NCBI GenBank assembly: GCA_038869515.1
Contig: JAWCQZ010000003.1
Location: 193,652 to 257,651 of the forward strand
DNA: 64,000 nucleotides
Direction: 5' to 3'
Source: Halobacteria archaeon
GTDB lineage: Archaea > Halobacteriota > Syntropharchaeia > JACQPP01
The notes beneath the pieces are model-generated. The model saw only the letters and a list, made by a program, of their open reading frames with translations. It searched no databases and was not told the origin of the DNA. Numbering within the stretch: position 1 is the first letter of the stretch; each line of letters starts with the position of its first letter. The translations under genes were made by a program, and so were the position numbers. Shown one piece after another: positions 19,374 through 52,303 of the stretch.

Positions 19374-19811
19374 ATGAAGGTCGGCGAGGTCATGCACCGC
19401 GGGGCCATCACGGCGATGGCCGACGAGCCCCTCCCTCCCGTCGCCGAGCGGATGGGGGAGCGGCGGGTGGGGTGCGTCGTGGTCCTTAAGCAGGGCAAGG
19501 TGGCGGGCATCCTGACCGAGCGGGACATCCTGCGGAAGGTCGTGGCCCGGAACAAGACGCCGGCCCGCATCCAGGTCCGGGACGTCATGAGCGCCCCCGT
19601 GACCACCGTGACCTCCGGCACCGACCTCGACGAGGCCACAGCCCTCATGGCGGAGCAGCGCATCCGCCGCCTCCCGGTGGTGGACGGCGGAAAACTGGTC
19701 GGGATGCTCAGCTCCTCGGACGTCGTCTGCTTCCTCCCCCAGATGGACAAGATTCTCCTCGATATGGAGTTGAAGGCCGAGGGGTCCGCCGCGAAACCGA
19801 AAAAGCGCTAG
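19374..19811 (+). CDS. CBS domain pair protein
   Basis: 145 aa with two CBS repeats (VGEVMHRGAITAMADEPL...GCVVVLKQGKVAGILTERDIL and VRDVMSAPVTTV...RRLPVVDGGKLVGMLSSSDV). Confidence 0.85.
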   Translation: MKVGEVMHRGAITAMADEPLPPVAERMGERRVGCVVVLKQGKVAGILTERDILRKVVARNKTPARIQVRDVMSAPVTTVTSGTDLDEATALMAEQRIRRLPVVDGGKLVGMLSSSDVVCFLPQMDKILLDMELKAEGSAAKPKKR

Positions 19812-22138
19812 CCAGAGGGCGTGAGGAGGAGGACCCTCCCATCGTTCGCGTCCAGAGGGACCTCCAGGGACCTCTCGGCGGCGCCGGCCGGGGCTTTCGA
19901 TTTTCCGTGAGCGTAGAGCGTCTCGACGCGGTTCCTCGGTCCGAGGCCGAGCCGTCCCGGGTCCCGGAACTCGACGGTCGCAGTCCGGGCCGGACCGCGG
20001 TTGAGGAGGAAGAGCAGAGTGGAGCCGCGCGCCCTGCGGGCCACCGCCTCCACGCCCGGGGGCGCGGCGAGGGCGGGGGCGACGCCGGCCCGGTCGAGGA
20101 TCCCGCCCGCCAGCCCCTTGAGGGCGCGGTGCTCCCCGGGCCGGATGGAGTAGTAGCCCTTGCCGGAGAAGAGGGCCCCCGGAAGGGTTCCCACGACCGT
20201 GACCCGCCCCTTCTGGAGGGGCGCGGTCCACCCCACGGTCCTCTTCCCACGCGTCAGGAGGGTCTCGGCGCCCGCGGGGGGGTCCCAGGAGGACTCGAGA
20301 GGCGCCCCGGGGAAGGGCCCGTCGGGCCCCCGGAGGGCCACCCGGCGGCTGAAGAAGTAGTTCATGGGGGGGATCCCCTGGCGCATCCCGTCGAGGGTGA
20401 AGTTCTGCCACTTGGAGGGGACCCGCCACCGGTAGAGGGCGCGCCAAATCATCACCGTGTTCAAAATATGCATCACCGCCTGGCTCTGGTAGTGGATTCG
20501 GGTGGGCCCCGGCGCCGAGGGGATGAGGTCCCGGGCGCCCGGGAGGGGGCGGCCCTGGAGGTCCCGGGAGGGGGTCTTGGGGGTCACCATCAGATGGCCG
20601 CCCCCGGAGACGTATCCCTTCAATTTCTCCAGGGTCCCTGCGTCCATGAACCCGTTGGAGGGGAGGATGAGGAGGCGCCGCTCTGCGAGCGCTTCGGGGG
20701 CCGCCATCTCGAGGTCGGCGATTTCGGGGTTGGGCCCCCCCTCGTGGAAGAGTCCCAGGAGGCCGTGGGCCCCCGCCCCCATCGAGAGGTCGAAGGGGTC
20801 GCTCGAATACATCCGGTGGTTCGGGAAGTATTCGAGGAGGGCGAAGGGGTCGGTGACCTCCTCCGACTCCAGGAGCAGCTCCTCGTTTTTCCGGGCGAAC
20901 TCACAGATGGACTTCACCACGCCGTGGCGGGGCAGCGTCTCCCCGCCGGGCCCGATGCAGGCGTTCCAGGCGTAGAGCGCCCCGTCGGCTTCCACGCAGT
21001 CGTGGAGGATGTAGTAGCCGATCCATCGCGTCCCGTGGGCGAGCATGGCGAGGGTCAGTTGGACCGTCTCCTCCATCGGGACCTCCACGAAGGGGTCGAA
21101 CCAGCCGCACTGGGTCTCCGGGGAGAAGACCGGCGCGTCGCCCCGGTAGTTCGCGAAGAGTTTGGGGCCGAAGCAGGGCACGAAGGGCATGTCGAAGAGG
21201 TGCTTCCCGGGCACCACCTTCGGGTAGAGGTCGTAGCCCACGGGCCCCACCTCCTGCGCCTTGCGCCGGGTGTGCCCCGGGGTGAAGAGGAGCGCGGGCT
21301 CGTTCAGGAAAAACGGCTCCGGCGCCCCCGCCTCGCGGAGTTTCCCCTTCAGGTTGTTGAGGTAGCGGATGAGATACTCCTCCAGGAACTCCTGCCACAG
21401 TCCCACCTCGCCCAGGTTCTCCAGGGGGGCCCGCAGGCGGCGCCACGGGAGGCGGGGAACCGGCCTCACCTCCTCCAGTCGCGCGTAGGAGGTCCCCCGG
21501 TCACGGTTCAGGGCCTCCACCGAACCGTATCTCTCCTTGAGGAACGTCCGGAACATCTCCATCGTCGCCGGGTTGTAGTCCCGGAAAAACGGCGTGGGGC
21601 TGACGAAGCCGTCAATGTAGACCACCCCGGTCTCGTTGTCAATCTGGGTGCAGAGGATGTTCTTGAAGGGGCGCACCGCCTCGAACAGGGCCTTGAACCA
21701 CTTCCCGGCCAGTTCGAGGTGCTTCGGGTGGTTGAAGGAGACCGTGTGCCACCTCCGCCCGTCCTGGGCCACCTGGAGAACCTCCGGGTATTTCTCGAAG
21801 AGCCACGGCGGGTATCCGAAGTTGAGGTATTCGGCGTTGATGTAGGGCCCGGGCCGGAGGGTGATGGCGAGGCCCGCATCCTCGATGAGGCGGCAGACGC
21901 CGACCAGGTCGCGCTCGGGCCGCGTCCGCCCCGTGAAGTCGAACCGCCCTTCCTCCGCCTCGTGCCACCCCCACGGGATGTAGAGGTCGATGAAGGTGAT
22001 GCTGGCCGCTTTCAGTTTTTCGATGCCCGGGGCCCAGAGGGGCTTCGGAATCCGGTAGTAGTGGAAGGCGCCTCCGATGAGGAGCCTCCGTTTTCCGTCC
22101 ACCCGGATGTTCCCGTCCTTGAACTCCGCGCGGCCCAT
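19808..22138 (-). CDS. Glycoside hydrolase family 35 beta-galactosidase-like enzyme (no signal peptide)
   Basis: 776 aa. GGAFHYYRIPKPLWAPGIEKLKAASITFIDLYIPWGWHE..EGRFDF.G..DL..... LRPGPYINAEYLNFGYPPWL and QIDNE are typical GH35 motifs. Confidence 0.85.
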   Translation of the reverse strand: MGRAEFKDGNIRVDGKRRLLIGGAFHYYRIPKPLWAPGIEKLKAASITFIDLYIPWGWHEAEEGRFDFTGRTRPERDLVGVCRLIEDAGLAITLRPGPYINAEYLNFGYPPWLFEKYPEVLQVAQDGRRWHTVSFNHPKHLELAGKWFKALFEAVRPFKNILCTQIDNETGVVYIDGFVSPTPFFRDYNPATMEMFRTFLKERYGSVEALNRDRGTSYARLEEVRPVPRLPWRRLRAPLENLGEVGLWQEFLEEYLIRYLNNLKGKLREAGAPEPFFLNEPALLFTPGHTRRKAQEVGPVGYDLYPKVVPGKHLFDMPFVPCFGPKLFANYRGDAPVFSPETQCGWFDPFVEVPMEETVQLTLAMLAHGTRWIGYYILHDCVEADGALYAWNACIGPGGETLPRHGVVKSICEFARKNEELLLESEEVTDPFALLEYFPNHRMYSSDPFDLSMGAGAHGLLGLFHEGGPNPEIADLEMAAPEALAERRLLILPSNGFMDAGTLEKLKGYVSGGGHLMVTPKTPSRDLQGRPLPGARDLIPSAPGPTRIHYQSQAVMHILNTVMIWRALYRWRVPSKWQNFTLDGMRQGIPPMNYFFSRRVALRGPDGPFPGAPLESSWDPPAGAETLLTRGKRTVGWTAPLQKGRVTVVGTLPGALFSGKGYYSIRPGEHRALKGLAGGILDRAGVAPALAAPPGVEAVARRARGSTLLFLLNRGPARTATVEFRDPGRLGLGPRNRVETLYAHGKSKAPAGAAERSLEVPLDANDGRVLLLTPSG

Positions 22139-22200: not shown

Positions 22201-22212
22201 ATAGGTTTTAAT
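22201..22212 (+). promoter_or_regulatory. TATA-like box (ATAGGTTTTAAT), which favours ATG 22235 as the start of the next gene
   Basis: Lies ~28 nt upstream of ATG 22235 and overlaps the track start at 22211. Confidence 0.35.
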
Positions 22213-22234
22213 GGCCCTCCTCCCAAGCCCCACC

Positions 22235-23623
22235 ATGGCGGACATGCCCCTTCTCTGGAAGGCGGAGACCGAGGGGCAGGTGAAGGCTGCGGCGCTCCAG
22301 GCGGGGCTCGCCGCCGCCGGATGCTACGACGGCACGGTCCACTTCTTCGACCTGAAGGGTCAGCCCCTGGGGAAGTTCAAGGCGAAGCGCCGGGGGGACA
22401 AGGTCATGGATGTCTCGGTGAGCCCCGGCGGGACCCGGACAGCGGTGGGGACCCACGACGGCGACGTCTACCTCCTGGACGAAAACCGGAAGCCGCTCTG
22501 GACGTTCAAGACCGAGGGGCGGTTCAACGCCGCCATGTGCGTGGCCCTCCGGGGCGAGGCGGAGGGCGTGGTGGTGGGGTGCTACGACGGCCGCCTCTAC
22601 CTCCTGGGGCCCGACGGACAGGTCCGCTGGTCTCTCGCCCCGGGGTCGGCCTTCGAGCAGCGCTACATCTGGTCGCTCTCCACCTCCAGCAGCGGCCACG
22701 TGGCGGTCGGGACCCACGGGAACGAGGTCCTCCTCCTCTCCCCCGAGGGAAAGGTCCTCTGGAACCAGAAGGGCCGGGAGGCCGGGGCGACCGTGTGCGT
22801 CGCGATGTCCGCCCGCGGCGACGTCCTCTGGTCGGGCTCCGACGACCGGACCCTCTCGCTCCTGGACGCCCGCGGCAAGGTGCTCCGGAGTTTCCCGGCC
22901 CCGGGGAGGGTGCGGACCATCTCCGCGGACCGGCGCGGCTCCCTGCTCGCGGTGGGGACCTACGACGGCCGGCTCTACCTCTACGACGCCGAGGGCAAGG
23001 TCCTGGCGGACCAGGCGATGCCCGGGGGCTTCCCCTGGTCGGTCTGCCTCTCGCCCTCCGGCGCGACCCTGGCGGCGGGCTCTTCGGACAAGGGGCTCTA
23101 CATCTACGCGGTCGCGGCGGCGGTGGAGCGGGCCGCGGCGGATCTCCGGGAGAGGGCGGCTGCGGCCAAGGCGAGCGTCAACCTGGGCCCCGTCTTCCAG
23201 CCGGGGGCCGACCCCGAGGGGACCATGGCCCGGGTCCGGGAGCTCCGGAAGTCGTTCTACGACCGGAAGTCGGCCGAGGCCATCGAGGCCCGCCTGCGGG
23301 TTCTCCCGGGGCGGGAGAAGGAGCCCGCCCTCGAATCGATCCGGAACCTCCTGGACCAGGCCAAGAAGAAGGGTTCAGGAAGCCTCCTGGTCGAAGCCGA
23401 GTCCCGGCTCGATGAGCTGGAGACCCTCCTTCAGATGCGCGAGGCCCTCGCCGAGGAGTTGAAGTCCCTGGAGGGGCCCGAGCGCTACGCCCAGGCCCTC
23501 GGGGAAGCGAAGAACGTGGAGGGGCTGAGGCAGCTGCTGGAGGACCGGGGGGAGAGGAAATCGCGGCTCCGGAAGGCGCTGGAGGAGCTCGAAGCCCGTC
23601 TGAGGGCGCTCCCCCAGACGTGA
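22235..23623 (+). CDS. Cytoplasmic beta-propeller repeat protein (PQQ/WD40-like blades) with a long C-terminal coiled coil
   Basis: The track ORF starts at 22211. I prefer 22235 (MADMPLLW) because of the TATA spacing. Repeated blades read G.V...D..G..LW / DG.LYL.D..GK. The last ~170 aa are heptad-like and charged. Confidence 0.75.
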   Translation: MADMPLLWKAETEGQVKAAALQAGLAAAGCYDGTVHFFDLKGQPLGKFKAKRRGDKVMDVSVSPGGTRTAVGTHDGDVYLLDENRKPLWTFKTEGRFNAAMCVALRGEAEGVVVGCYDGRLYLLGPDGQVRWSLAPGSAFEQRYIWSLSTSSSGHVAVGTHGNEVLLLSPEGKVLWNQKGREAGATVCVAMSARGDVLWSGSDDRTLSLLDARGKVLRSFPAPGRVRTISADRRGSLLAVGTYDGRLYLYDAEGKVLADQAMPGGFPWSVCLSPSGATLAAGSSDKGLYIYAVAAAVERAAADLRERAAAAKASVNLGPVFQPGADPEGTMARVRELRKSFYDRKSAEAIEARLRVLPGREKEPALESIRNLLDQAKKKGSGSLLVEAESRLDELETLLQMREALAEELKSLEGPERYAQALGEAKNVEGLRQLLEDRGERKSRLRKALEELEARLRALPQT

Positions 23624-23632
23624 CCCGCCGCC

Positions 23633-26617
23633 CTACGGCAGGGTGAGCACGTTCGCCGCCTCGGGCGCCGGCGGGGGCGGGCGGGAGGTCGCCAGGTCGA
23701 GGCTCTTGGCAGCCCCGAAGGTCACCTCGTCGTCGGTGAGGCGGAGCTCCCGGGGCTGGCCGAGGGCCGTGACGGTGTAGGGGCCGGTGGCGACCACCGC
23801 GTAGCGCGTCTTGCCCTTGGCCGGGGCGTCGGGGTCGGGGGGCTCGGTGGCGTAGGGGAGCGTCAGGGAGTAGGTCCCGTCGGGCCCCGCGGTGGCGGAC
23901 TGGACGTAGGCGAAGGCGCGGCCGGTGTTCGTGAGGAGCGGGAGGCTCGCGCGGACCTCGGCTCCGGGGGCCGTGGTTCCAGTGACCTGCGCGCCCCGCA
24001 CGTATTCGAAGGTGACGACGAAGTGGAGGCCCACCGGCGAGGTGCCGTTGGCGCACGACCTGGCCTCGTTGACCAGCGGCATCCCCCACGGGGAGAGCTG
24101 GCCCAGGAGGGTGCGCCCGTCTCCCGCGACGCACCGGTGGGCCAGGATGCCCCTGGACTCGTGGACGAGCCGGTAGTGCCGGAGGGCGGGGATGACCACG
24201 CGGGTGCTGCGCTCTCCCGAGGCGCCGGTGTCGGAGAGCCACTCGTAGGCCGCCTCCGAGCCGTCGAGGAAGTGGAGGCGGGACTCGATGGTCCGGGCGT
24301 GGTTGGTGCTGCCGATGGGGTTGCTGAATGTGATGCAGAGGCCGGGGGGCGGAGGCACGTTGTCGGCGCAGTCGGAGGCCAGGTTTTGCCGGTAGCGGGC
24401 GAAAATCCGGTCTCGGGCGCCGCAGTCCTGGATGCCGTTGGTGTTCTGGACGCAGGTGAGGAAATATTTCTCGGTGAGCCAGGTCCCGTTCCCCCCGGTC
24501 GCCCACGTCAGGACCGCGCCGAACTTCCCGGTCGCCTGGGGCCAGTCCGACATCACGTAGCGGGTCCCCAGGGCGTCGGCGATTTGGTTCGCCATGCTCT
24601 CGTTGTCGGTGGAGAGGAAGGGGGCGGCCCCCAGGACCAGGTCGGGGCTGGCGGCGTCGGGGCCCCCGGGAGAGCACTCCGCCGGGTCGCGCTCGGGGCA
24701 GGGGAGGATGCCGATGCCCGCCTGGAAGGGGTTGGCGTTGGGGATGCGCTTGCCGAAGTAGGTGATGACGTGGCCGTAGTCCCACCACGACATGACCCCG
24801 TAGGCGCTCTGGTAGTCGTACCAGGTGGTGCCGTTCGATTTTTTCGGATAGTGGAAGATGCCGTCCGGCGGACGCGGGTATATCGCCGAGAAGTTGAGGC
24901 CGGGCCCCTGGGGGTCGGGGGTGTTCTCCCTCATCCACGTCAGGCTCTCCAGCCATTCGAGGTAGTCCCCTCCGCTCCCCGGCCCGCCCCGGGAGGCGGC
25001 CAGGGTCCACTCGACCGTGTTGCCGGTCCCCTGCGCCGCGTCCCCGACGAAGACCGCGAGGAAGAGGAGGGCGGGAACCATGGCGCTCATCACGACCGGG
25101 CTCGCCGAGCGGGAGAGGAATCCGGAGAGGTCGGAGGGACGGGCCACTTCCCGGGGTATCCGCTCCCGGAGCCTCCGCAGGCCCGCGGCGTCGGCCAGTT
25201 CGACGATGAAATAGGCGCCGACGATGCCGGTCGAGGCCACCGAGTAGTAGGAGAATCGGTTCTGGGCCCAGGTGATGTGGATGAGGAAGTAGGCCCAGAT
25301 GGCGAGGAAGAGGAGGCCCGGTTTGTAGCCTGCGTCCTCCCCTTTCTTCAGGAAGCCCCGGTAGAGGATGCGGTATCCCACCAGGAGCAGGAAGCCGCTG
25401 TAGAAGAACATCACGTGGAAGATGCCGCCCTGCATCCCGACGAATTGGGCCCACTGGGGCCCCGAAGCCTCGGCGACCGTGGAGGCGCCTCCCGTCGGGG
25501 GCGTGAAGATGGCGAGGGCGGAGGTGACACCGCCGTAGAGATTGGGTGCCACCACCGAGAGGATGGGCAGGCCGATCGCGGGAAGCGCCAAGAGAAGGAA
25601 CGGGAAGAGGAACCGGGGGAGACTCTTGCGCCGGAAGAGGACCACGACCAGTCCCAGGACCAGCGCAAGGGCCAGGAACGCGCCGAGGAACCCGGGGCCG
25701 AACGGGGTGTAGGTCTTGGGGTCGGGGACCAGGTCCCACTGGACCCCGGGGAGCATCACCAGGATGGCGGTCAGGAGGGAGCCGGCGGTGACCAGGACGG
25801 GCCCGTCGGGGTTGCCGCCCCTCATGAACTCGACCACCACTTGGAGCAGCAGGAAGAGGCCCATGGGCACCATCAGCATGGTGGCGCCCGGCCAGTTCAG
25901 GTAGTAGAGGCCGTAGGCGACGCCCACCCCGAGAACCGGCAGCAACACCGCCCGAAGGGCCCCCCACTCCCGCCGCAGGACATGCCCGAACGTTAGGTTC
26001 CGGCCGACGTCGAGGGCCTTGATGTAGAGGGCGACGGCGATGGCCATGTAGAAGACTTCCGCCACGTGGTGGTCGGTGAACCCGAGGAGGGAGCGCGACA
26101 GGAACTGGCCCGGGATGGTCGCGAAGATGGCCGCCGCCAGCAGCCCCGTTCTCCGGTCGAAGGCGTAGCGTCCGATGAGGTAGACGGGGATGAGGGTGAG
26201 GCCCCCCATGACGGCGGGGAAGAGGGCCGCCACGGTGTCCACGGTCTGCGGCGAGGGGTTCCCGCCGCCCACGAGAAGGGAGACCGCGGCGATGCTCAGG
26301 GTCCAGGCGGGCCCGTAGTGGATGCCGTGTCCGTAGGGGAAGAAGGTGAAGGGGTCGAAGAAGGCGCGGACCGGGAAGTGCCGAACCGCCAGTTCCACGT
26401 GGCGCATCTGCATGACCGCGTCGTCGGCGGCGAACTTGCAGCAGCGGCCGTCGGGGTAAAGCTCGCTGGGCCACGGAACGACGGCGCGGGTGTAGATCGA
26501 GAATGCGACGAGGCCCATGAGGATGGCGCCGCAGACGAGAGAGGGGAGGAGCGCCCGCGTCCAGGGGGCCGGAGAAGTCGAGGGGGCCTTCCGGGAAGCC
26601 GGTTTTTGGGCGGCCAT
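23633..26617 (-). CDS. aglB: Archaeal oligosaccharyltransferase AglB (STT3 family)
   Basis: Track ORF 23633..26701 (TTG start) trimmed to ATG 26617. About 13 TM helices followed by the WWDYG motif (MSWWDYGHVITY) and a large soluble C-terminal domain. Confidence 0.9.
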   Translation of the reverse strand: MAAQKPASRKAPSTSPAPWTRALLPSLVCGAILMGLVAFSIYTRAVVPWPSELYPDGRCCKFAADDAVMQMRHVELAVRHFPVRAFFDPFTFFPYGHGIHYGPAWTLSIAAVSLLVGGGNPSPQTVDTVAALFPAVMGGLTLIPVYLIGRYAFDRRTGLLAAAIFATIPGQFLSRSLLGFTDHHVAEVFYMAIAVALYIKALDVGRNLTFGHVLRREWGALRAVLLPVLGVGVAYGLYYLNWPGATMLMVPMGLFLLLQVVVEFMRGGNPDGPVLVTAGSLLTAILVMLPGVQWDLVPDPKTYTPFGPGFLGAFLALALVLGLVVVLFRRKSLPRFLFPFLLLALPAIGLPILSVVAPNLYGGVTSALAIFTPPTGGASTVAEASGPQWAQFVGMQGGIFHVMFFYSGFLLLVGYRILYRGFLKKGEDAGYKPGLLFLAIWAYFLIHITWAQNRFSYYSVASTGIVGAYFIVELADAAGLRRLRERIPREVARPSDLSGFLSRSASPVVMSAMVPALLFLAVFVGDAAQGTGNTVEWTLAASRGGPGSGGDYLEWLESLTWMRENTPDPQGPGLNFSAIYPRPPDGIFHYPKKSNGTTWYDYQSAYGVMSWWDYGHVITYFGKRIPNANPFQAGIGILPCPERDPAECSPGGPDAASPDLVLGAAPFLSTDNESMANQIADALGTRYVMSDWPQATGKFGAVLTWATGGNGTWLTEKYFLTCVQNTNGIQDCGARDRIFARYRQNLASDCADNVPPPPGLCITFSNPIGSTNHARTIESRLHFLDGSEAAYEWLSDTGASGERSTRVVIPALRHYRLVHESRGILAHRCVAGDGRTLLGQLSPWGMPLVNEARSCANGTSPVGLHFVVTFEYVRGAQVTGTTAPGAEVRASLPLLTNTGRAFAYVQSATAGPDGTYSLTLPYATEPPDPDAPAKGKTRYAVVATGPYTVTALGQPRELRLTDDEVTFGAAKSLDLATSRPPPPAPEAANVLTLP

Positions 26618-26703
26618 CCTCGGGGACCGCCGGTCAGGGACAAGAACTTTCTCCCGTGAAAAAAGGGGAAAATTAGAAGGCGGCCCCCGGTCCCCGTCCA
26701 ACG

Positions 26704-27843
26704 ATGAAAATCGCCCTCTTCGGTCCCGGGTCGGAGTTCCTCTCGGGCATCTCCTACTACACGGCCAACCTCGCCCGGGCGCTCTCCGAGGAGCACGAGG
26801 TCACCGTGGTCCTGTTCCGGAAGATGCTCCCCCGTATCATCTTCCCGGGCCGGGAGCGCGTCGGCGCCCCCATCGCGAGCCTCGACTACGGGCGGGCCCG
26901 CGTCCTCCCCCTCGACTGGCACAACCCCGGGACCTGGCTGATCGCCTTCCGGGCCATCCGGAGCTGCGACGCCTGGGTTCTCCCCTGGTGGACCGCGTCG
27001 GTTTTCCACCTCTACCTCGCCCTGAATCTCCTGCGGCGCGGACCGAAACTCGTGGTCGAGTTCCACGAGATTCTCGACCCCCTCGAGGCCCGCAATCCCG
27101 GCCTCCGGTGGTATACGAAAGCGGTCTGTGCGCTGCTCCTGAAGCAGGCGTCTTCGGCGGTCGTCCACTCCGAGGCCGACCGGGGAGTGGTGGCGGAGAG
27201 CTTCGGCCTGGACGCCTCCGTCGTGCCCCATGGACTCTTCGAATATCCGCGGGTGGAGCGGCCGGAGGCCCGCCGCCGCCTCGGAATCCCGGAGCCCCGG
27301 GTCCTCCTCTACTTCGGCATCGTGCGGCGCTACAAGGGGCTGCCGGTCCTCCTCGACGCCTTCGACCGGTTGCCGGAAAGTCTGGCCCGGGAGACGCGCC
27401 TGCTGCTGGTGGGAGAGCCCTGGGACGATGAGGTCGCCCTTCGGGCGCGCATCGCCGCGTCGCCGCGCGCGGGACAAATCACCTGGGTGGACCGGTATGT
27501 CTCCGACGATGAAATCCCCCACTTCTTCGGCGCGGCCGACGCCGTGGTCCTGCCCTACCTCCGCGCCTCCCAGAGCGGCGTCGCCCACATCGCCATTGCG
27601 CAGGGGCTGCCCGTGGTGTTGAGCCGGGTCGGGGGGCTGGAGTCCCTGGGGGAGTACTCGGGGGCGACCCTGGTGGAGCCGGGCGACCCCGCCGGGCTGG
27701 TCGCGGCCCTGGAGCGAGTCCTCCGGCAGGGGCCCCGGGCCCATCCCGCGCCCCCTCTCGGCTTCCGGGAGACCGCGCGGAGGTACACGCAGGTCCTGGA
27801 GCGGGCCCGCGGGATTCGGGGAGGGGAGCGCGCCAACCCTTAA
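26704..27843 (+). CDS. Family 4 glycosyltransferase (GT-B)
   Basis: 379 aa. MKIALFGP..., ...LLYFGIVRRYKGL..L..A......, ...LPY..ASQSGV...A.A.GLPVV (E/Sx7E-like region). Confidence 0.85.
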   Translation: MKIALFGPGSEFLSGISYYTANLARALSEEHEVTVVLFRKMLPRIIFPGRERVGAPIASLDYGRARVLPLDWHNPGTWLIAFRAIRSCDAWVLPWWTASVFHLYLALNLLRRGPKLVVEFHEILDPLEARNPGLRWYTKAVCALLLKQASSAVVHSEADRGVVAESFGLDASVVPHGLFEYPRVERPEARRRLGIPEPRVLLYFGIVRRYKGLPVLLDAFDRLPESLARETRLLLVGEPWDDEVALRARIAASPRAGQITWVDRYVSDDEIPHFFGAADAVVLPYLRASQSGVAHIAIAQGLPVVLSRVGGLESLGEYSGATLVEPGDPAGLVAALERVLRQGPRAHPAPPLGFRETARRYTQVLERARGIRGGERANP

Positions 27844-27865
27844 ATCGCCGGGTCGTTGGAAGACC

Positions 27866-28726
27866 ATGCAGCACCAGGTCCGCGAGAAACTGCTTTTCAG
27901 TTACCAGCGGGCGGACGAGCCCTTCGTCCGGGCCCTGTCCCAGCGCCTCCAGTGGGGCGGGTTCGACGTCATCCCCGATTTTTGGGACGAGAAGGGCGTC
28001 GAACCGGTCCCACCGGAACTCCAGGCCGTCCTCTCCCAGGTGAATTTTTTCTTCTACGTCCTCTCCCCATCCGCCGCGGAGTCGAAGTGGACCCGGGGGG
28101 CCCATTGCGCCCTCCTCTTCCAGCGGATGAAGCAGGCGGGCCTCCGCATCGTCCCCCTCGTCCGGGGCGCCGGCCCCTCGCCGCCGCTGATGGCCCCCCT
28201 CCGCCATATCGATTTTCGCGGGTTCAATCCGGCCGACCCGGCGGCCTTCCGGACCGACCAGGCGGGCCCATTCCAGGAGTTGATGGCGCTCCTCGGGCGC
28301 AAGCACCAGAAGGGGGGCGGCGAGCTCATCCCCCCGGGCATGGCAACCTATGAGTTCACCCTCCAGCCGAGGGCGTCGAAGCCCAAGAACCTCGACCGCA
28401 GCCTCAACTACGAACTCATCATCCGGAACGTGAAGAAGGACCCCCTGCGGAACTTCGCCCTCACCGTCCGTTTCCGGCAGCCGGTCCTCGATGTGAAATA
28501 CGACAAGTACCGCTCCTCCTCCGGGGAGTTAAGCACCGGCGAGGGGCTCTCCCCGGACGGGACACGGTTCAACTGGATTGGCGATTCCCTCTACGGAGGG
28601 GGCGGGTTCGCCCTGTTCAACATCCGCTCGAAAGAGCCGCCGCAGATTTCGAGGATTTCCACGAAATTCGTCGGGCGGGTGGCGGGGACCAACCGGGTCA
28701 TCGCACCCGACCCGGAGGGAGTCTAG
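27866..28726 (+). CDS. TIR-like domain protein with an uncharacterised C-terminal domain
   Basis: 286 aa. LLFSYQRADEPFVRALSQRLQWGGFDVIPDFWD...FFFYVLSPSAAESKWTRGAHCALL...RIVPLVRG is colinear with the TIR_2 consensus. Residues ~150-286 are unrecognised. Native-like GC3 codon usage. Starts 22 nt after the GT4 gene. Confidence 0.7.
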   Translation: MQHQVREKLLFSYQRADEPFVRALSQRLQWGGFDVIPDFWDEKGVEPVPPELQAVLSQVNFFFYVLSPSAAESKWTRGAHCALLFQRMKQAGLRIVPLVRGAGPSPPLMAPLRHIDFRGFNPADPAAFRTDQAGPFQELMALLGRKHQKGGGELIPPGMATYEFTLQPRASKPKNLDRSLNYELIIRNVKKDPLRNFALTVRFRQPVLDVKYDKYRSSSGELSTGEGLSPDGTRFNWIGDSLYGGGGFALFNIRSKEPPQISRISTKFVGRVAGTNRVIAPDPEGV

Positions 28727-29850
28727 GGGGCGGAGCCGCCCCGCTCCCGCAGCAGCTCCCGGTAGAGCCCCTCGATCCGCTCCCCGACCTTCGACCACGT
28801 GTAGTCCCGCAGCACCTTCTCCCGGGCCCGTTGGCCGATTTCGGGGTGCTTCCCGTCCAGGACCTCCCGCGCCTTCCGGGCGATCGCCCCCGCGTCCCCG
28901 TAGGGAATCGCCAGCCCGTCCACGCCGTCGTTGATGAGGTGCTTCGTCCCCCCTTCGAGGGTCGTGATGACCGGCTTCCCGAACCACATCGCCTCCATCG
29001 GCGCCGTCGGCAGCCCCTCGTAGCGGCTCGGCAGGAGGAACGCCGCGCAGGCCGCGTAGGCGGAGGCGAGGGTCGGCTGGTCCACCGGGCCTGTGAATTC
29101 GACCGCGTCCGAGACCCCCAGGCGCTCCGCCCGCGCCTCCAGCTCCGCGCGCAGCCCGAAGTCCTGGCCGACGCAGACGAGGCTGAGTCCCTCCCTCTTC
29201 AGTTCGGCCATCGCGTCCACCGCGAACTCGAGCCCCTTCACCCAGTCGATCCGACCGACGTAGAGGAGGAACCGCTCCACGCCGTACTTGCGCCTGAATC
29301 CCTCGGGATCGGTCTTGACCGCCTCGAATCGCTCCTCTGCGAGTGCGTTGGGGATGAGCACGATGCGTTCCCCCGGGGCGCCCATCCGCAGGACGTCCGC
29401 CCGGTCGTTCTCCGTCAGGCAGATGATGCGGTCGGCCAGCCGGAGGGACATCCGCCCCAGGGTCGGGTCGTAGGCCGCCTTCACCAGCCGCACCTTCAGG
29501 TTCCGGGAGGGATAGACGCAATGGGGGGTGAAGACCTTGGGCCTCGGGTCCTTCCGGACGGCGCGCATCCCGAGGGCGACGAATGGCTTGTGGATGAGGT
29601 GGAAGTGGAAGAGGTCGCCCTCCCACGCCCGCAGAGCCCGGCCCAGGGCCCCGGCGGAACCCACCCGGACCACCCGGAGGCCGTGGAGCGTCTCCTTCGG
29701 CGGCAGGGGCTGGCCGCGGTTGTCGGTGTCGCGGGTGAAGACGGTGACTTCGTGGCCGCGCTTCACCATCTGGAGCCCGAGGTTCTCCATGTGGAATTCC
29801 ACGCCCCCGAAGACGGGGGCGAAGAAGCGGCCGACCAGTGCAATTCTCAA
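28723..29850 (-). CDS. Family 4 glycosyltransferase (GT-B)
   Basis: Track ORF 28723..30459 trimmed to TTG 29850 (MRIALVGRFFAP...), with alternative GTG at 29880. ...FLLYVGRIDWVKGL... and LLPSRYEGLPTAPMEAMWFGKPVI (EX7E) are present. The start overlaps the epimerase stop (TTGA). Confidence 0.85.
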   Translation of the reverse strand: MRIALVGRFFAPVFGGVEFHMENLGLQMVKRGHEVTVFTRDTDNRGQPLPPKETLHGLRVVRVGSAGALGRALRAWEGDLFHFHLIHKPFVALGMRAVRKDPRPKVFTPHCVYPSRNLKVRLVKAAYDPTLGRMSLRLADRIICLTENDRADVLRMGAPGERIVLIPNALAEERFEAVKTDPEGFRRKYGVERFLLYVGRIDWVKGLEFAVDAMAELKREGLSLVCVGQDFGLRAELEARAERLGVSDAVEFTGPVDQPTLASAYAACAAFLLPSRYEGLPTAPMEAMWFGKPVITTLEGGTKHLINDGVDGLAIPYGDAGAIARKAREVLDGKHPEIGQRAREKVLRDYTWSKVGERIEGLYRELLRERGGSAP

Positions 29851-30770
29851 CGCTTCCTCGCGGAGTGGGCGTCCATCCACTCCACAAACCGGTCGAGCCC
29901 CTCCTCCAAACCGACCTTCGGTCTCCACCCGAGCCGCCTCAGTTTCCGGTTGTCCGCAATCAGCGCCTTGATGTCCCCCGCCCACGACTTCCCGGTGTAG
30001 ACGATTCTCGCCCCGGGAGCCACCCGGGCCACCATCCCCTCGGCGATGCGGCGCACGGTGGTGGGCTTGCCCGACGCGATGTTGGTGCACCCCTCCCCCC
30101 TCCGGAAGAGGAGCCAGAGCGCCTCCACCGCGTCCGACACATAGCAGGGGTCCCGGACCTGGGTCCCGTCGCCGAGAACCTCGAGGCGCTTCGGGTTCCG
30201 CTTGAGTTTGTGGTAGAGGTCGGCCATGACGTAGCGGGGCTGCCGCGGGCCGTAGATGTTGAAGATGCGCGCGGCCGCGAAGTCGAGTCCGTAGGCCTCC
30301 CGGTAGGCGAAGCCCATGCTCTCCCCCGTTAGTTTCGAGGCGCCGTACGGGGAGACCGGGCGGAGGGGGTGCCCCTCGTCCATCGGGATGCGGTCGGGCT
30401 CGCCGTAGGCCGCAGCGGTGGACGCGTAGAGGACGCGCTTCACCCCGCGTTTCCGGCACGCCTCGAGGACGTTCATCGTGCCTCCGGCGTTCGTCTCGAA
30501 ATCGTAGCGCGGGTCCTCGACCGAGAGGGGGACCGAGGCGTTGGCGCCGATGTGGATGACCCCCGCATTCCCGCGCACCGCCCGCTCCACGGCCCGTGGG
30601 TCCCGGAGATCGCCCTTCACGAACCGGATGCTGCTCCGGACTCCGCGCAGGTTCTCCGCCTTTCCGGCCTGCAGGTTGTCGAAGGCGGTGACGCCGTGCC
30701 CGAGGGCGGCGAGCCGGTCCACCATGTGCGAGCCGATGAAGCCGGCTCCGCCCGTGACCAGGATTTTCAT
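29847..30770 (-). CDS. NAD-dependent epimerase/dehydratase (UDP-sugar 4-epimerase-like SDR)
   Basis: Last 307 aa of track ORF 29847..32336. MKILVTGGAGFIGSH..., catalytic YGASK. Confidence 0.9.
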   Translation of the reverse strand: MKILVTGGAGFIGSHMVDRLAALGHGVTAFDNLQAGKAENLRGVRSSIRFVKGDLRDPRAVERAVRGNAGVIHIGANASVPLSVEDPRYDFETNAGGTMNVLEACRKRGVKRVLYASTAAAYGEPDRIPMDEGHPLRPVSPYGASKLTGESMGFAYREAYGLDFAAARIFNIYGPRQPRYVMADLYHKLKRNPKRLEVLGDGTQVRDPCYVSDAVEALWLLFRRGEGCTNIASGKPTTVRRIAEGMVARVAPGARIVYTGKSWAGDIKALIADNRKLRRLGWRPKVGLEEGLDRFVEWMDAHSARKR

Positions 30771-32377
30771 GGAACCCCTGCCCCGGGGACCTCGTATATA
30801 CGCACCGGCCCGAAGATCCCGGCGAGCCGGAGGACCCCGCGGGAGACCTCGTCGTCGAAGGCGCGCCGGTAGGTGGAGAGGTCGAACCAGAGGTAGCCGT
30901 CGTCGGTGACGGCGTGGGTCACGCCGAGTCGCCGGAGGGCCCCGGCGTCGAGCCCCTCCGCTTTCCACCAGGGCAGGTGGAGCGAGATGCGCCCGGAGTA
31001 GTAGTCCACCAGGTCCTTGTCGGGAGCCATGATCCGGGCCTCGGGGGGCAGGGCTTTGAGGTAGGCGAGCGCGTCGGCGCGGGCCCCGTGGTAGGAGACC
31101 GCCACCGCCGCCTTCCCCGCCTCGCTGGCCGCGGCCGCGCTCCCCGCGAGGACGAGGAGGACGAGAACGGCTCCGGCGAGGCCCTTTCGCGGGGATAGTT
31201 TCTCCCGGACCACGGTCCAGCCCAGCGCGGCGAATATGGCCAGGACGGGGGCGAGGGGGAGCAGCCGACGGAAGGAGTAGAGGAGGAAGAACTGACCCAG
31301 GGCCGCGGTGACGAGGACGACCGCGAGGGCCCACAGCACCACCCACAGCCAGAGCAGTTTCGACGGGTGGGTCAGCCCCCGGCCGAAGCCGAGGAGGACC
31401 AGCGGGACGAAGAGGAGCGTCGAGAGGGCGTAGAGGAGAACGAGGGACCCGGGGAGCGGGATGACGTCGGCCCGCCCGGAGGGGAACCCCCACGCCTCCA
31501 GGTAGTTCTGCTTCAGGAGGGCGGGCAGGAGCGCCAGCCCCCCGCCCCGGTTCGCCTCGGAGATGGACGCCAGGAACGCCGCGTTCTCCTCGCCGGGCGC
31601 CGGGACCGGGAGGCCGATGTTGGTGAGCCCCTCCTGCCCGACCGACTTGGTGATTCCGAGGTCGCCGTAGAGCCGGTAGTTGTGGCCGACGTAGTAGACC
31701 GAGGCGAGGGCGCCCGCGGCCACCAGCGCCGTCAGGGCGATGCGGAGGGAGACCGCGCCGATTTTGCGGCGGCGCAGGGCGCGGACTGCGAAGTAGAAGA
31801 AGATGAACGCCGCCGCTACGGCCCCCGTCTCCTTCGAGAGGGCGGCCAGGCCCGCAGCGGCTCCCGCGGTCCATGCGTCCCTCCGCGACCCGCCCTCCAG
31901 GGCCCGGTGGGAGTGGTAGAGGGTCATGATGCAGAATGCGGTCACGGGCGCGTCGAGGTAGCCGAGGGCGCTGTAGTGGAGGTGGGCCGGCAGGATGCCG
32001 AGGAGCACGGCCCCGAGGAGCCCCACCCGTTCGGAGTAGCAGTGGCGCCCGAGGCGGTAGGTGTAGAGCAGGGCGAGGGTCCCGAACGCGGGAGCGATGA
32101 GTTTGAGGCCGACCTCCCCGGCCCACGGGACCAGCAGGGCCCCGAGGAGCGGGACGAGGGGCGGGGGGAACCAGAGCCGTTCGAGGTAGAGGCCCGGGTC
32201 GGCGGCGAAGGCCTTCGCGTAGATGAAGTAGGTCCCGGGGTCGGAGAAGACCGGGAAAACCAGGGCCAGGGCGAAACGGTAGAGGACCAGTCCGACGAGG
32301 GCCGCCTTCAGGGCCCGGGGCGGCTCCCGCAGCCACTTCCGGAAGGAGGCCCAGAGGGCCGGCGGGGAGAACCCCAT
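30767..32377 (-). CDS. GT-C fold membrane glycosyltransferase (PMT_2/ArnT-like, family 39/83-like)
   Basis: Track ORF 30767..32449 trimmed to ATG 32377, which avoids overlapping the upstream gene. At least 10 TM helices and a soluble C-terminal tail. Confidence 0.8.
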   Translation of the reverse strand: MGFSPPALWASFRKWLREPPRALKAALVGLVLYRFALALVFPVFSDPGTYFIYAKAFAADPGLYLERLWFPPPLVPLLGALLVPWAGEVGLKLIAPAFGTLALLYTYRLGRHCYSERVGLLGAVLLGILPAHLHYSALGYLDAPVTAFCIMTLYHSHRALEGGSRRDAWTAGAAAGLAALSKETGAVAAAFIFFYFAVRALRRRKIGAVSLRIALTALVAAGALASVYYVGHNYRLYGDLGITKSVGQEGLTNIGLPVPAPGEENAAFLASISEANRGGGLALLPALLKQNYLEAWGFPSGRADVIPLPGSLVLLYALSTLLFVPLVLLGFGRGLTHPSKLLWLWVVLWALAVVLVTAALGQFFLLYSFRRLLPLAPVLAIFAALGWTVVREKLSPRKGLAGAVLVLLVLAGSAAAASEAGKAAVAVSYHGARADALAYLKALPPEARIMAPDKDLVDYYSGRISLHLPWWKAEGLDAGALRRLGVTHAVTDDGYLWFDLSTYRRAFDDEVSRGVLRLAGIFGPVRIYEVPGAGVP

Positions 32378-32438
32378 GGACGGGAGACCGGGAGTCGCGA
32401 CCGATATATCTTTTCCAGAGTCTCTAATCTCTACGGGC

Positions 32439-32891
32439 TCACTCGACAATCAGTTTCGGCGAGACCCCGGGCTTGTGCATCAGGGGGTGGTGGATGGCGC
32501 AGTGGAACTCGTAGGTCCCGGCCTTCTCGAACTTGTAGGACCAGGACTGGCCGGGCACCAGGCTCCCCGGCGCCCCCGACTTGGGGGTCTCCGGGCCGCC
32601 CACGAAGGTGACGTCGTGGGGCGCGACGTCGTCGTTGGAGAACATCACCGTGGTCCCCGCCTTGACGCGGATCTCGCACGGGTTCCACGACTCGCAGGGG
32701 TCGACGCTCAACTTGACGATTTTCACCCTGGCCTCGGCCATGGCTGCGCCGGCGGTCGGAGTCGCGGGGGGGGCGGTGGTGGCCGCCGGAGGGGTGGCGG
32801 TGGCCGCGGGGCTCGGAGGGGCGGAGCAGCCGGAAATGATGAGGCCGGCAGCGACGAGAGCTGCGACGGAGGCCAGAGTGGCGGTTCGCAT
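32439..32891 (-). CDS. Lipoprotein cupredoxin (halocyanin/amicyanin-like blue copper protein)
   Basis: 150 aa. Lipobox LIISGC, a Pro/Thr/Ala linker, and type 1 Cu ligands ..APHDV.. and HCAIHHPLM. Confidence 0.85.
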   Translation of the reverse strand: MRTATLASVAALVAAGLIISGCSAPPSPAATATPPAATTAPPATPTAGAAMAEARVKIVKLSVDPCESWNPCEIRVKAGTTVMFSNDDVAPHDVTFVGGPETPKSGAPGSLVPGQSWSYKFEKAGTYEFHCAIHHPLMHKPGVSPKLIVE

Positions 32892-32945
32892 GGAGACAAG
32901 GATTGGGGGGCGGGATTTAAGCTTTCCGGCGGGTGCGCGCCCCGC

Positions 32946-33488
32946 CTACGGAGTCTTCAACGAGGCAAGATAGGCGACCAGGTCGTTCAGGCCCGCGCAA
33001 TCGGCCACGTCGGCCGCGCTGGAGGCCTTCTTCCCGCACAACTGCTGGTCGAAGGAGTCGGGCATCGCCGGAGCGAACCCCTCGGCGACTTTGGCTCCGG
33101 GCTCCACGATGGACTCCCGGATATGCTCCTCCCCCCTGGCGGAGACTCCGGCGAGGCCCGGGCCCACGGGGGTCCCTTTCCCGGCGGCGAAGGGCTGCTG
33201 CGGGTTGTGGCACGCGGCGCAGGAGGCGGCGAAGAGCTCCCTGCCCCGGGCCGCGTCTCCCGCTCCCGGGGCCGACGGCGAAGCGACCGGGGTGGGAAGG
33301 AGGGTGGGAGCGGGCGATGGTCCCGCCAGCGCCGGTGTGGCGCGGGGCTGGAGGGGGGTCACCGGGGGCGGGGGAGACGGCGATGCCGGCGGCCACGTGG
33401 AGGGGTTGAACTTCATGTCGGGCGGGTGGCCGCATCCCGCGACCAGGACCGACGCGGCAACCAGGATTCCCAGGAGAGCGATTCGCAT
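32946..33488 (-). CDS. Lipoprotein mono-haem c-type cytochrome
   Basis: 180 aa. Lipobox LVAGC, a Pro-rich linker, haem-binding CAACH and a distal Met region (APAMP). Confidence 0.85.
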   Translation of the reverse strand: MRIALLGILVAASVLVAGCGHPPDMKFNPSTWPPASPSPPPPVTPLQPRATPALAGPSPAPTLLPTPVASPSAPGAGDAARGRELFAASCAACHNPQQPFAAGKGTPVGPGLAGVSARGEEHIRESIVEPGAKVAEGFAPAMPDSFDQQLCGKKASSAADVADCAGLNDLVAYLASLKTP

Positions 33489-33512
33489 CGAACGCCAAGA
33501 GGCACGGGCGAC

Positions 33513-33911
33513 TTAACCCTTTCCGGGCAGCCGCGACCGGATGACCTCCTCGTACTTGCTCGGGCACTTGGCCAGGAGTTGGTAGGCGACGAAGGTCCCG
33601 TCCCCCCCCATTCTCCCGATGAGGGTCACTCCCGCGTCCTCCTTGAGGATGCCGGGAAGGGGGCCCCGGTAGGTCACCGGCATGGTGGCGAGGCCGTCGG
33701 TGGCCGTCAGCATCGTCACGTCGCCCGACCTCTGTAGGCTGCCGCTGACGATGAAGGCCGCGACGTAGACCGTCTGGTTCCGGGCCGCCGGGTCGGAGAG
33801 CACTTCGGAGACGAAGCGGTAGGGGGAGGCGGAGGTGGAGAGAAAAACGACCAGGAGGAGCACGACGACGCCGGCCCCGCCCCCGTATGCGAGGAGGCTA
33901 CGTCGGTCCAC
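33513..33911 (-). CDS. ccmE: Cytochrome c maturation haem chaperone CcmE, CxxxY variant
   Basis: 132 aa with a GTG start. N-terminal TM helix, OB-fold region ...VTYRGPLPGILKEDAGVTLIGRM..., and LLAKCPSKY in place of the canonical LAKHDENY. Confidence 0.85.
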   Translation of the reverse strand: MDRRSLLAYGGGAGVVVLLLVVFLSTSASPYRFVSEVLSDPAARNQTVYVAAFIVSGSLQRSGDVTMLTATDGLATMPVTYRGPLPGILKEDAGVTLIGRMGGDGTFVAYQLLAKCPSKYEEVIRSRLPGKG

Positions 33912-34029
33912 GGCCCACCTCCCGGGCGACCCGCCCCGCCCGGGCCCGGAGAAGCGCGAGGTAGAGGGCGAGCGAGAGCCAGAAGAGGGCGACCCCGAGC
34001 GCGGTCGAGGCCTCGGGCGCGTGGCTCAT
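33898..34029 (-). CDS. ccmD: CcmD-like small haem exporter subunit
   Basis: Last 43 aa of track ORF 33898..34182 (MSHAPEASTALGVALFWLSLALYLALLRARAG...). One TM helix plus a basic tail, sitting between ccmC and ccmE. Confidence 0.5.
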   Translation of the reverse strand: MSHAPEASTALGVALFWLSLALYLALLRARAGRVAREVGRGPT

Positions 34030-34102
34030 CGTCGTTGACCGGCCGGAACGCGGCCGAAGGCCGCGGTCGGCATGCCGAACGGCGCGCTTGTTGCGTCGAA
34101 AG

Positions 34103-34756
34103 TCATCCTTCTTCCTCCCGCTGCTCTTGGAGGGCGACGTCGAAGCGGACCGCCCAGAGGCAGACGAGCCCGAGGCCGGCAACCATGAGGCCGGCGACCC
34201 CCCACATGGCGGGCTCGAGCCCGATGGAGAAGGATTGGGGGTGGAGGGAGGTGGGGAAGAGCCGGGTCGAAAGGTAGGCGAGGGGGACCGAGAGATAGGC
34301 GAGGGTGGACCACGCCGCCGCCGCGCGCGCCCGGACCCGCGGGTCGGAGATGGAGGCCCGGAGCGCCAGATAGCCAGCGAAGGCGAGGCCCATCGCGAGG
34401 GTCGCGGTCTCGATGGGCTGCCAGGTCCAGAAGACGCCGGAGGCCTCGTACCACGTCTCCCTGGCGAAGAGAACTCCCACCGCGAGGGTCAGTAACGTGA
34501 ACAGGAGCCCCAGGCGTGCCGAGGCCCCGGCCGCCCGGTCCCACCGGAGGCGTCCGGTCCGGAGAAAGAGGAGGCCCCCCGCGAGGGTGAAGGTGAAGAG
34601 GCCGGTGGCTAGGAGCGCGCTCGGAAACTCGAAGAAGAAGAGGCGGTAGGCCTCGCCGAGGGTCCGGGCCGGGGGAAGCAGTGCGAGGGCGGCGGCGGTG
34701 GCGAGACCGCACAGGGCGAGTCCGGCCGCGAGAACGCTATTCGACTTCGAGGACAT
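34103..34756 (-). CDS. ccmC: Haem exporter/lyase subunit CcmC (divergent)
   Basis: Last 217 aa of track ORF 34103..35179. Six TM helices. The Trp-rich loop reads SGVFWTWQPIETAT (canonical WGxxWxWDxRLT). The second conserved His is present (TSLHPQ). Confidence 0.8.
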   Translation of the reverse strand: MSSKSNSVLAAGLALCGLATAAALALLPPARTLGEAYRLFFFEFPSALLATGLFTFTLAGGLLFLRTGRLRWDRAAGASARLGLLFTLLTLAVGVLFARETWYEASGVFWTWQPIETATLAMGLAFAGYLALRASISDPRVRARAAAAWSTLAYLSVPLAYLSTRLFPTSLHPQSFSIGLEPAMWGVAGLMVAGLGLVCLWAVRFDVALQEQREEEG

Positions 34757-50753: not shown

Positions 50754-50828
50754 TCGAAGCCTCAGCGAGGCTTCGAAAGAACTCTTGCGATTCATCCGTC
50801 GGCGGCGCGAATCGCGCCCGCCGACAAA

Positions 50829-52303
<1,475 letters not shown>

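Follow-up and report, generated by a model that had tools for sequence, protein, structure and literature searches.

Results

TIR-X is encoded in an AglB-anchored glycosylation cluster

TIR domains are shared across the immunity of animals, plants and bacteria, and to our knowledge nearly all of the characterised prokaryotic ones are NAD+-cleaving effectors. Here we analysed a stretch of 64,000 nucleotides (hereafter 'the window') from an archaeal assembly (GCA_038869515.1, contig JAWCQZ010000003.1, positions 193,652 to 257,651), in which a gene for a TIR domain followed by a second, C-terminal domain (called X; gene and product are called TIR-X) stands in an AglB N-glycosylation cluster. The features of the cluster are given below, with positions counted from the first letter of the window; related proteins carry P numbers and the contigs that encode relatives carry L numbers.

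23633–26701, minus strand: AglB, archaeosortase-A-associated STT3 type (TIGR04154, 593.8 bits; Pfam STT3, AglB_core-like and AglB_L1)
26704–27843, plus strand: GT4a glycosyltransferase (Pfam Glyco_trans_1_4, Glycos_transf_1 and Glyco_transf_4)
27839–27845, plus strand: CTTAAAT element that includes the GT4a stop codon TAA (from an alignment of GT4a/TIR-X junctions)
27866–28726, plus strand: TIR-X gene, ATG at 27866, TAG at 28724–28726, 286 amino acids (open reading frame and translation, full-length orthologues)
27887–28300, plus strand: TIR domain, residues ~8–145 (Pfam TIR_2, PDB profile match, AlphaFold2 and Foldseek)
28100–28102, plus strand: codon GCC for Ala79, at the catalytic-glutamate position (WxxxE) of NADase TIRs (HMMER alignments to AbTir and PdTIR)
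28334–28723, plus strand: domain X, residues ~157–286 (AlphaFold2 model, PDB fold matches, profile search)
28723–29850, minus strand: GT4b glycosyltransferase (Pfam; 83% identity to the L003 orthologue)
29847–30770, minus strand: NAD-dependent sugar epimerase/dehydratase (Pfam Epimerase, E=9e-63)
30767–32449, minus strand: GT-C membrane glycosyltransferase, PMT_2/Agl23-like (Pfam PMT_2; weak matches to TIGR03663 and the STT3 family)

As an initial annotation of this DNA had proposed, TIR-X is thus embedded in a glycosylation cluster, with AglB, two GT4 genes, the epimerase and the PMT_2 gene around it, and starts 22 nt after the stop codon (at 27843) of a GT4 gene on the same strand. AglB, which may start at ATG 26617, is divergent from GT4a. 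On the other side TIR-X and GT4b are convergent, with both stop codons lying within the palindrome CTAG at 28723–28726 and no terminator-like structure between them; the minus-strand PMT_2, epimerase and GT4b genes are coupled by ATGA/TTGA start/stop overlaps at 29847–29850 and 30767–30770. The start codon of TIR-X is backed by collinear full-length orthologues, which are 93, 70, 65 and 63% identical to the window protein, and its codon usage is native, as had been stated: the GC content at third codon positions (GC3) is 0.88, compared to 0.88–0.94 in the neighbouring genes, in a window of ~70% GC. Since the protein contains no hydrophobic segment, both domains are predicted to be cytoplasmic, and we take window TIR-X to be a soluble two-domain protein of the cytoplasm.

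The context of TIR-X was scanned with Pfam over ~15.2–38.2 kb of the window and with PADLOC on 10 neighbouring genes. Among the flanking genes scanned we detected no SIR2, SLOG, Macro, STING, SAVED, prokaryotic Argonaute (pAgo) or cyclase gene, in agreement with the earlier observation that SIR2, STING, SAVED, pAgo and cyclases are lacking nearby. Likewise, no defence genes, integrases or compositional anomalies were seen around TIR-X in these genes, and outside the glycosylation cluster the Pfam-scanned genes have housekeeping functions. TIR-X itself gave nothing significant with PADLOC (the best model was PDC-S66, E=0.066) and matched no Agl or sugar-processing family in NCBIfam or Pfam.

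The TIR domain lacks the catalytic glutamate

The ~145 N-terminal residues had been read as TIR_2-like, and sequence, profile and structure searches agree on this. Pfam TIR_2 (PF13676) matches residues 11–128, which span positions 3–118 of the 122 in the model, at 49.8 bits compared to a gathering cutoff of 28 (E=6e-13). A profile built from nine family members and compared with the PDB gave AbTir (7uxr) as the best match (1.1e-13) and also matched PdTIR, Cat1, BtpA/TcpB, Toll-like receptors (TLRs), plant TIRs and SARM1. In the AlphaFold2 model the TIR half is an alternating β/α, flavodoxin-like structure (βA 7–13, αA 15–30, βB 33–39, αB 50–56, βC 61–66, αC 78–90, βD 94–99), although its predicted local distance difference test score (pLDDT) is only moderate in parts. 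Foldseek with the full-length model, a check that the initial annotation had suggested, recovered the TIR domains of SARM1, RPS4, L6, BtpA and MAL from this half. The N-terminal domain of TIR-X is a genuine TIR domain, with a flavodoxin-like fold and a score above the Pfam cutoff.

The closest relatives of the TIR half are AbTir, PdTIR and BtpA-TcpB (7uxr, 7uwg, 3h16 and 4lzp; profile E 1e-13 to 1e-7), with which it shares its length, an S-x-W motif before helix αC and an acidic residue in the BB loop. In marked contrast to these proteins, which carry the catalytic glutamate, have an N-terminal coiled coil as their partner region and are not encoded in glycosylation clusters, window TIR-X has Ala79 at the catalytic position and a C-terminal β-sandwich as its partner. 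The alanine had first been placed by eye; HMMER alignments now put the glutamate of the WxxxE motif of AbTir and PdTIR ('NWTEYE' and 'DWTNYE') on 'KWTRGA', that is, on Ala79. The clade to which the window protein belongs has five full-length members (window, P0001–P0004), each with Ala or Gly at this position, compared to Glu in the relatives P0006, P0007, P0010 and P0012. Within the window clade the four residues that follow W75 vary (T/S, R/G, G/A and A/G), so that no new active-site motif is evident, and the clade alignment holds no clade-specific conserved acidic residue that might replace the glutamate; this variability has the look of relaxation and not of a new active site. Other residues of the TIR pocket region are kept throughout the family (D38, W40, G44, S67 and the S73-K74-W75 motif). 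As judged from these alignments, window TIR-X is without the defining glutamate of enzymatic (NADase) TIRs, and we infer that it is probably no longer an NAD+-cleaving suicide effector.

These results bear directly on one of the two functions first considered for the gene, namely that of a TIR-fold enzyme processing a nucleotide or nucleotide-sugar for glycan synthesis. The location between two GT4 genes and near an NAD-dependent sugar epimerase/dehydratase would suit such an enzyme, as would the retained pocket residues, with which nucleotide binding may have survived. However, the glutamate of all characterised enzymatic TIRs is missing and the residues after W75 are variable in the clade; the nucleophile/acid of TIR and related N-glycosidase folds is thereby lost, Pfam and NCBIfam searches found no homology to known sugar-nucleotide enzymes, and the ancestral family has no linkage to glycan genes. 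No positive support for the enzymatic function emerged, and we regard it as the least probable of the explanations weighed here.

Domain X is an unannotated β-sandwich

The ~140 C-terminal residues had been said to match no recognised family, and this still holds: window X has no Pfam, NCBIfam or PADLOC family, and no consistent Pfam match was found among 19 members of the X family. AlphaFold2 modelled X alone (residues ~151–286, from a 19-sequence alignment) with a pLDDT of 92.2 and a predicted template modelling score of 0.85, as a β-sandwich of nine strands and no helix. The best PDB matches of the model, in a Foldseek search that had likewise been proposed, were carbohydrate-binding modules (CBMs) of family CBM2 (3ndy_E, 6qfs, 1exg and 2rtt), CBM3b and accessory sandwich domains from GH20 and GH18 enzymes; mu-homology and integrin Ig-like domains came next. 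All of these matches were weak (TM-score 0.45–0.63, E 3e-4 to 1e-2). A fold search of BFVD returned generic matches only, of CBM or chitinase-accessory type, and a sequence profile of X gave weak multi-stretch matches to repeat proteins with DUF7507/DUF11 and He_PIG domains.

Taken over PDB and BFVD, the folds most like X are thus those of CBM2/CBM3 and of E-set/CARDB/DUF11 Ig-like surface domains. CBM2 is defined by a planar aromatic binding face. Unlike CBM2/CBM3 proper, X has no membership by sequence (no CBM Pfam model was matched at E<=5 by any of the 19 X sequences), its TM-scores stay at 0.45–0.63, and the X of the window is predicted to be cytoplasmic. Judged by its model, X is a domain without annotation whose fold is generic and CBM/E-set-like.

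A ubiquitin-like C-terminus was also considered, on the basis of weak phmmer matches in the PDB between residues 195–256 and ubiquitin/affilin (E 0.01–1.5), and was rejected because the AlphaFold2 model is a sandwich of nine strands with no helix and Foldseek returned no ubiquitin.

X is a rare domain combined with exchangeable N-terminal modules

A HMMER scan of 1.84 billion representative proteins with an X profile gave 23 matches, 18 of them at E<=1e-10, and a few dozen further X proteins came from word-indexed searches of 5.8 billion clusters. X is encoded by bacteria and by archaea, among the latter Methanophagales and further contigs that bear archaeal marker genes; a metagenome scan added only members of the Methanophagales type and none of the AglB-linked clade. 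In every family member seen X is C-terminal, preceded by one of the following:

TIR (TIR-X): window clade, Methanophagales clade, P0010 and P0012
TIR and one transmembrane segment: P0013
DUF4062, which is TIR-like (DUF4062-X): at least 17 clusters (P0020, P0043–P0059), the largest sub-family
unidentified domain and a transmembrane segment: P0015 and P0017
short transmembrane anchor (about 200–220 amino acids in all): many members, with a conserved SSGPFSPAIT..GSNS linker

On these architectures X is a mobile domain whose N-terminal modules (TIR, DUF4062 or a membrane anchor) are interchangeable. P0013, P0015 and P0017 each have a large leaderless N-terminal domain and then a single transmembrane segment; a large cytoplasmic domain followed by one membrane passage would place their X outside the cell. 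Positive-inside counts favour an outside X in ~12 of the 18 transmembrane-X forms and are only partly decisive, the large N-terminal domains being the stronger argument. In P0013, a TIR domain, a single transmembrane helix and an outward X would give a prokaryotic protein the topology of a Toll-like receptor. In the membrane-anchored forms the linker between the helix and X, which reads SSGPFSPAITxxGSNSxVxVxY, is common to P0009, P0016, P0018, P0019, P0024 and P0030–P0038.

The position of TIR-X is conserved and the gene is under purifying selection

The window clade comprises five full-length sequences (window, P0001–P0004) that are 63–93% identical to one another; identity to the Methanophagales clade is 46%. 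In each of the four members whose context is known (window, L001, L003 and L007) a GT4a orthologue is followed by TIR-X after 22–26 nt. The order AglB (minus strand), GT4a (plus) and TIR-X (plus) is found in the window and in L001, the only two loci in which the divergent AglB is seen, the L003 and L007 contigs ending before its position. In L001, GT4a and TIR-X share their strand with another GT4 gene, and the gap that follows TIR-X is 2 nt; L003 has GT4a and TIR-X together with the GT4b/epimerase/PMT_2 block, and L007 has GT4a, TIR-X and GT4b. TIR-X is therefore encoded in an aglB-anchored cluster, at a position conserved among its orthologues.

TIR-X diverges about as fast as its neighbours. 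Between the window and L001, identity is 63% for TIR-X and 70% for AglB, 75% for GT4a and 76% for the epimerase; between the window and L003 it is 70% for TIR-X and 74% for GT4a, 83% for GT4b, 84% for the epimerase and 60% for PMT_2 (overall, 63–70% compared to 60–84%). This neighbour-like divergence and the native GC3 argue for vertical inheritance and against recent insertion. The ratio of nonsynonymous to synonymous substitution rates (dN/dS), taken between the window gene and its nearest orthologue, is 0.16 over the TIR half and 0.07 over X; for more distant pairs the ratio is unreliable, synonymous sites being both constrained and saturated at a GC3 of ~0.9, so that purifying selection on TIR-X is indicated in the one unsaturated comparison.

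The window clade has nevertheless changed within X. Among 38 X columns that are conserved (>=85%) in 16 other family members, 17 are altered in this clade, and the changes cluster around residues 183–187, 217–224 and 239–250, where for example 'GNQIMEDGGW' has become 'GDSLYGGGGF'. Changes on this scale suggest a functional shift of X that coincides with the loss of the glutamate.

Together with the lost catalytic residue and a TIR half that evolves faster than X, the many altered X positions are also what a decaying relic might show, that is, a former defence gene that lost its activity and is carried as a neutral passenger in the operon. Against such decay, five lineages, with identities as low as 63%, keep the full-length frame intact, dN/dS is 0.07–0.16 in the least saturated comparison, GC3 is fully ameliorated, and residues 94–145 and most of X are strongly conserved even relative to the 46%-identical Methanophagales clade. 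We consider a relic very unlikely.

The alignment of the GT4a/TIR-X junctions further revealed that the CTTAAAT element is invariant in the four genomes (window, L007, L003 and L001), where it lies 20–27 nt before the TIR-X ATG, while the other spacer positions vary. In DNA of ~70% GC, this hints at an archaeal TATA/box A element and, with it, a near-leaderless TIR-X transcript.

Relatives of TIR-X outside the window lineage occur in conflict-type contexts

A survey of the genomic contexts of X homologues, which the initial annotation had called for, gave different pictures for the relatives and for the window clade. Ten loci of the Methanophagales-type TIR-X, 75–100% identical to each other, have flanking genes in common only where the contigs are near-identical, and most of the neighbours are orphan open reading frames (ORFans), plus one SIR2_2-like gene. 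The transmembrane-X and DUF4062-X genes lie in the following surroundings:

L011, transmembrane-X: adjoins UvrD, a Shedu-like NACHT/SduA_C protein and a restriction-modification methyltransferase-Mrr enzyme
L013, transmembrane-X: between HicA and ParE
L021, transmembrane-X: adjoins an integrase and HicAB
L022, transmembrane-X: adjoins metabolic genes
L023, 9001–9906, DUF4062-X: near Mrr_cat and PLDc_2, with archaeal markers
L025, 9001–9867, DUF4062-X: near AbiJ_NTD4 and DUF6036

No cyclase gene was found at those related X loci whose contexts were scanned. The exchangeable N-termini and the conflict-type neighbours together suggest that the wider X family consists of stand-alone modules of conflict or defence type, and outside the window lineage its members look like stand-alone defence genes in their behaviour. 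DUF4062-X is a candidate for an uncharacterised archaeal defence gene. The contigs of L023 and L025 carry archaeal marker genes (Alba, HcyBio) and many ORFans. In L017 the SIR2_2-like gene (2213–3436, minus strand) encodes a 407-residue protein with a near-threshold SIR2_2 match (23.8 bits compared to a cutoff of 24.5), and lies convergent to and immediately downstream of a Glu-bearing TIR-X of the Methanophagales type.

TIR and transmembrane effector pairs on STING, SAVED or cyclic nucleotide monophosphate (cNMP)-binding domains are known from the cyclic oligonucleotide-based antiphage signalling system (CBASS) and the pyrimidine cyclase system for antiphage resistance (Pycsar). The X family follows the same logic as TIR-STING/TM-STING, TIR-SAVED and PycTIR/PycTM, with a constant C-terminal domain, there the sensor, to which a TIR or transmembrane module is joined in turn. 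Unlike STING, SAVED and the cNMP-binding sensors, X is a β-sandwich of CBM2/E-set type with no adjacent cyclase or other signal-generating gene, and its predicted place outside the cell in P0013, P0015 and P0017 makes it a poor fit to a second-messenger receptor of this kind. X gave no Pfam match to SAVED, STING or a cNMP-binding domain, and no cyclase lies in the window neighbourhood; nor was there a ThsB_TIR or PADLOC Thoeris match, or a SIR2, SLOG or Macro neighbour among the scanned genes. TIR-X is not a Thoeris, CBASS, Pycsar or SPARTA (short prokaryotic Argonaute with TIR) protein, as it has no matching sensor domain, partner genes or PADLOC match.

The other function first considered for TIR-X, that of a single-gene TIR sensor/effector, accordingly fits the wider family, in which the Methanophagales TIR-X keep the glutamate and share no conserved neighbours and the DUF4062-X and transmembrane-X genes occur in conflict-type contexts, and fits the window clade poorly, where the glutamate is lost, X is remodelled, the position is fixed and housekeeping genes, in place of a defence island, form the surroundings. 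Its strongest form, and the main rival to the explanation given below, is that TIR-X is still an antiviral single-gene sensor/effector or sensor/adaptor placed in a surface-glycan locus, in which X would sense an infection cue and the TIR domain would oligomerise and act through a non-canonical catalytic residue or a recruited factor. In its favour are the contexts of the family, with unrelated flanks for the Methanophagales TIR-X and restriction-modification, toxin-antitoxin, Abi and nuclease genes beside transmembrane-X and DUF4062-X, and the swapping of TIR, DUF4062 and transmembrane modules on a constant C-terminal domain, which mirrors the effector pairs of CBASS and Pycsar. However, the glutamate is gone from five of five full-length clade members with no clade-conserved acidic replacement, the scanned genes around the window TIR-X are free of defence genes, integrases and compositional anomalies, no PADLOC model matches the protein (best E=0.066), and conserved X positions are remodelled. 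The gene has, moreover, kept its place across ~63–70% protein identity, unlike the Glu-bearing relatives with their shuffled contexts. A further point in favour of an antiviral role is that differences in surface glycans have reportedly been tied to the sensitivity of Haloferax to viruses (PMC5867893). Overall, an antiviral sensor or adaptor appears somewhat unlikely, yet it is the rival to be taken most seriously.

Discussion

A proposed non-catalytic TIR protein fixed in the AglB operon

Our preferred reading, to which we assign a probability of about 0.4, is that TIR-X is a TIR-sensor protein of immune type that has become a fixture of the AglB operon, where it would serve for binding or as a scaffold, without catalysis. 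Exaptation, a ligand and a scaffold role are what we infer from the domain identities, the lost glutamate, the architectures, the synteny and the purifying selection described above. An ancestral TIR-X gene would have become fixed beside a GT4 gene of the AglB N-glycosylation cluster; in the window lineage it would have lost the NADase glutamate and remodelled the conserved loops of X, and would thereafter have been passed on vertically under purifying selection as a non-enzymatic accessory of the cluster. The ligand of X would plausibly be a sugar-containing intermediate (e.g. a lipid-linked oligosaccharide) or else a partner protein, while self-association or nucleotide binding would fall to the TIR domain. 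A sugar-bearing ligand is proposed because of the CBM-like fold and the location in a glycosylation cluster. The scaffolding TIR domains of animal TLRs, MyD88 and MAL likewise lack the glutamate, and as with them any function would have to arise through assembly or binding and not through NAD+ cleavage; P0013 with its predicted outward X resembles TLRs in topology. Unlike these animal proteins, TIR-X is prokaryotic and has another domain as its partner, and the window lineage gives no evidence of a partner TIR or a downstream pathway.

Several considerations weigh against this reading. Glycan binding by X would rest on a generic fold likeness (TM-score about 0.5, E 1e-4 to 1e-2) with no CBM membership by sequence. 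The synteny comes from four genomes that are all fairly close (63–93% identity), so that simple inheritance as a passenger gene could account for it, and the TIR half evolves faster than X, as slow decay would also have it. The invariant CTTAAAT hints that TIR-X has its own promoter, so that co-regulation with GT4a should not be assumed. We know of no TIR protein in any other characterised Agl pathway, and non-catalytic TIRs can still signal in immunity, as animal TLR/MyD88 do.

A bolder version goes further and has the TIR-sensor domesticated into N-glycosylation, with the remodelled X binding the glycan, be it lipid-linked or nascent, from the cytoplasm, the TIR without NADase activity acting as an assembly or regulatory module, and X being a new sensor domain of TIR, DUF4062 and membrane effectors; taken as a whole this seems distinctly unlikely to us. 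If it were true, TIR-X could couple glycan assembly to the state of the cell or 'guard' the surface-glycan pathway, and the X family would include TLR-like prokaryotic receptors composed of a TIR domain, a transmembrane segment and an outside-facing X.

The mobility of X, its CBM-like sandwich fold and the coincidence of glutamate loss with location in the AglB cluster go beyond what the initial annotation had noted. New here is a TIR protein whose partner domain is novel, whose active site is apparently dead and which has an unusual, conserved home in an AglB operon; the X family is small, and the role given to TIR-X is a proposed one. As an unannotated, confidently folded sandwich that is swapped among TIR, DUF4062 and membrane modules, X is a candidate sensor module for the discovery of defence systems. 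The two clades, of which one bears Glu and stands free while the other has lost Glu and is fixed in the AglB operon, allow the re-use of a TIR domain for a non-catalytic, non-immune role to be tested, and if the link to glycosylation is functional, TIR-X would be the first component with a TIR fold in any archaeal Agl pathway. Literature searches turned up neither an archaeal TIR in an agl cluster, nor a link between TIRs and anaerobic methanotrophic archaea of group 1 (ANME-1), nor domain X, and such an absence is no proof.

Flanking genes and further observations

The housekeeping genes that flank the glycosylation cluster include pyrD, a GHMP kinase, FtsZ, a CBS protein, a GH35/42 glycosidase, a WD40/PQQ protein, a cupredoxin, cytochrome c and its maturation genes, and MoaE. 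Those placed closest to the cluster are:

19808–22138, minus strand: GH35/42-like glycosidase
22211–23623, plus strand: WD40/PQQ β-propeller protein, between the GH35/42-like gene and AglB
32439–36004, minus strand: cupredoxin, c-type cytochrome, CcmE, CcmC/F-like assembly protein and ABC ATPase, directly flanking the glycosylation cluster

The sole PADLOC match among the 10 neighbouring genes was a weak one to HEAT-ARM_XIII in the WD40/PQQ gene (4.6e-06), most likely a repeat-driven cross-match. Matches of GT4-conflict (PF20706) to the neighbouring GT4 genes were dismissed as secondary cross-matches far below the generic GT4 models, and give no evidence of a conflict system.

The window also contains a complete archaeal 16S rRNA gene (50828–52303, plus strand; Rfam SSU_rRNA_archaea, 1489.8 bits), which together with FtsZ and AglB marks the host as an archaeon. 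The 11.7 kb that remain, where a coding sequence starts at 52705, gave no 23S rRNA match, so the rRNA genes appear to be unlinked. The proteins encoded around the glycosylation cluster are not acidic (K+R > D+E), and the host is therefore no salt-in haloarchaeon, notwithstanding the Halobacteria label of the nearest metagenome-assembled genome.

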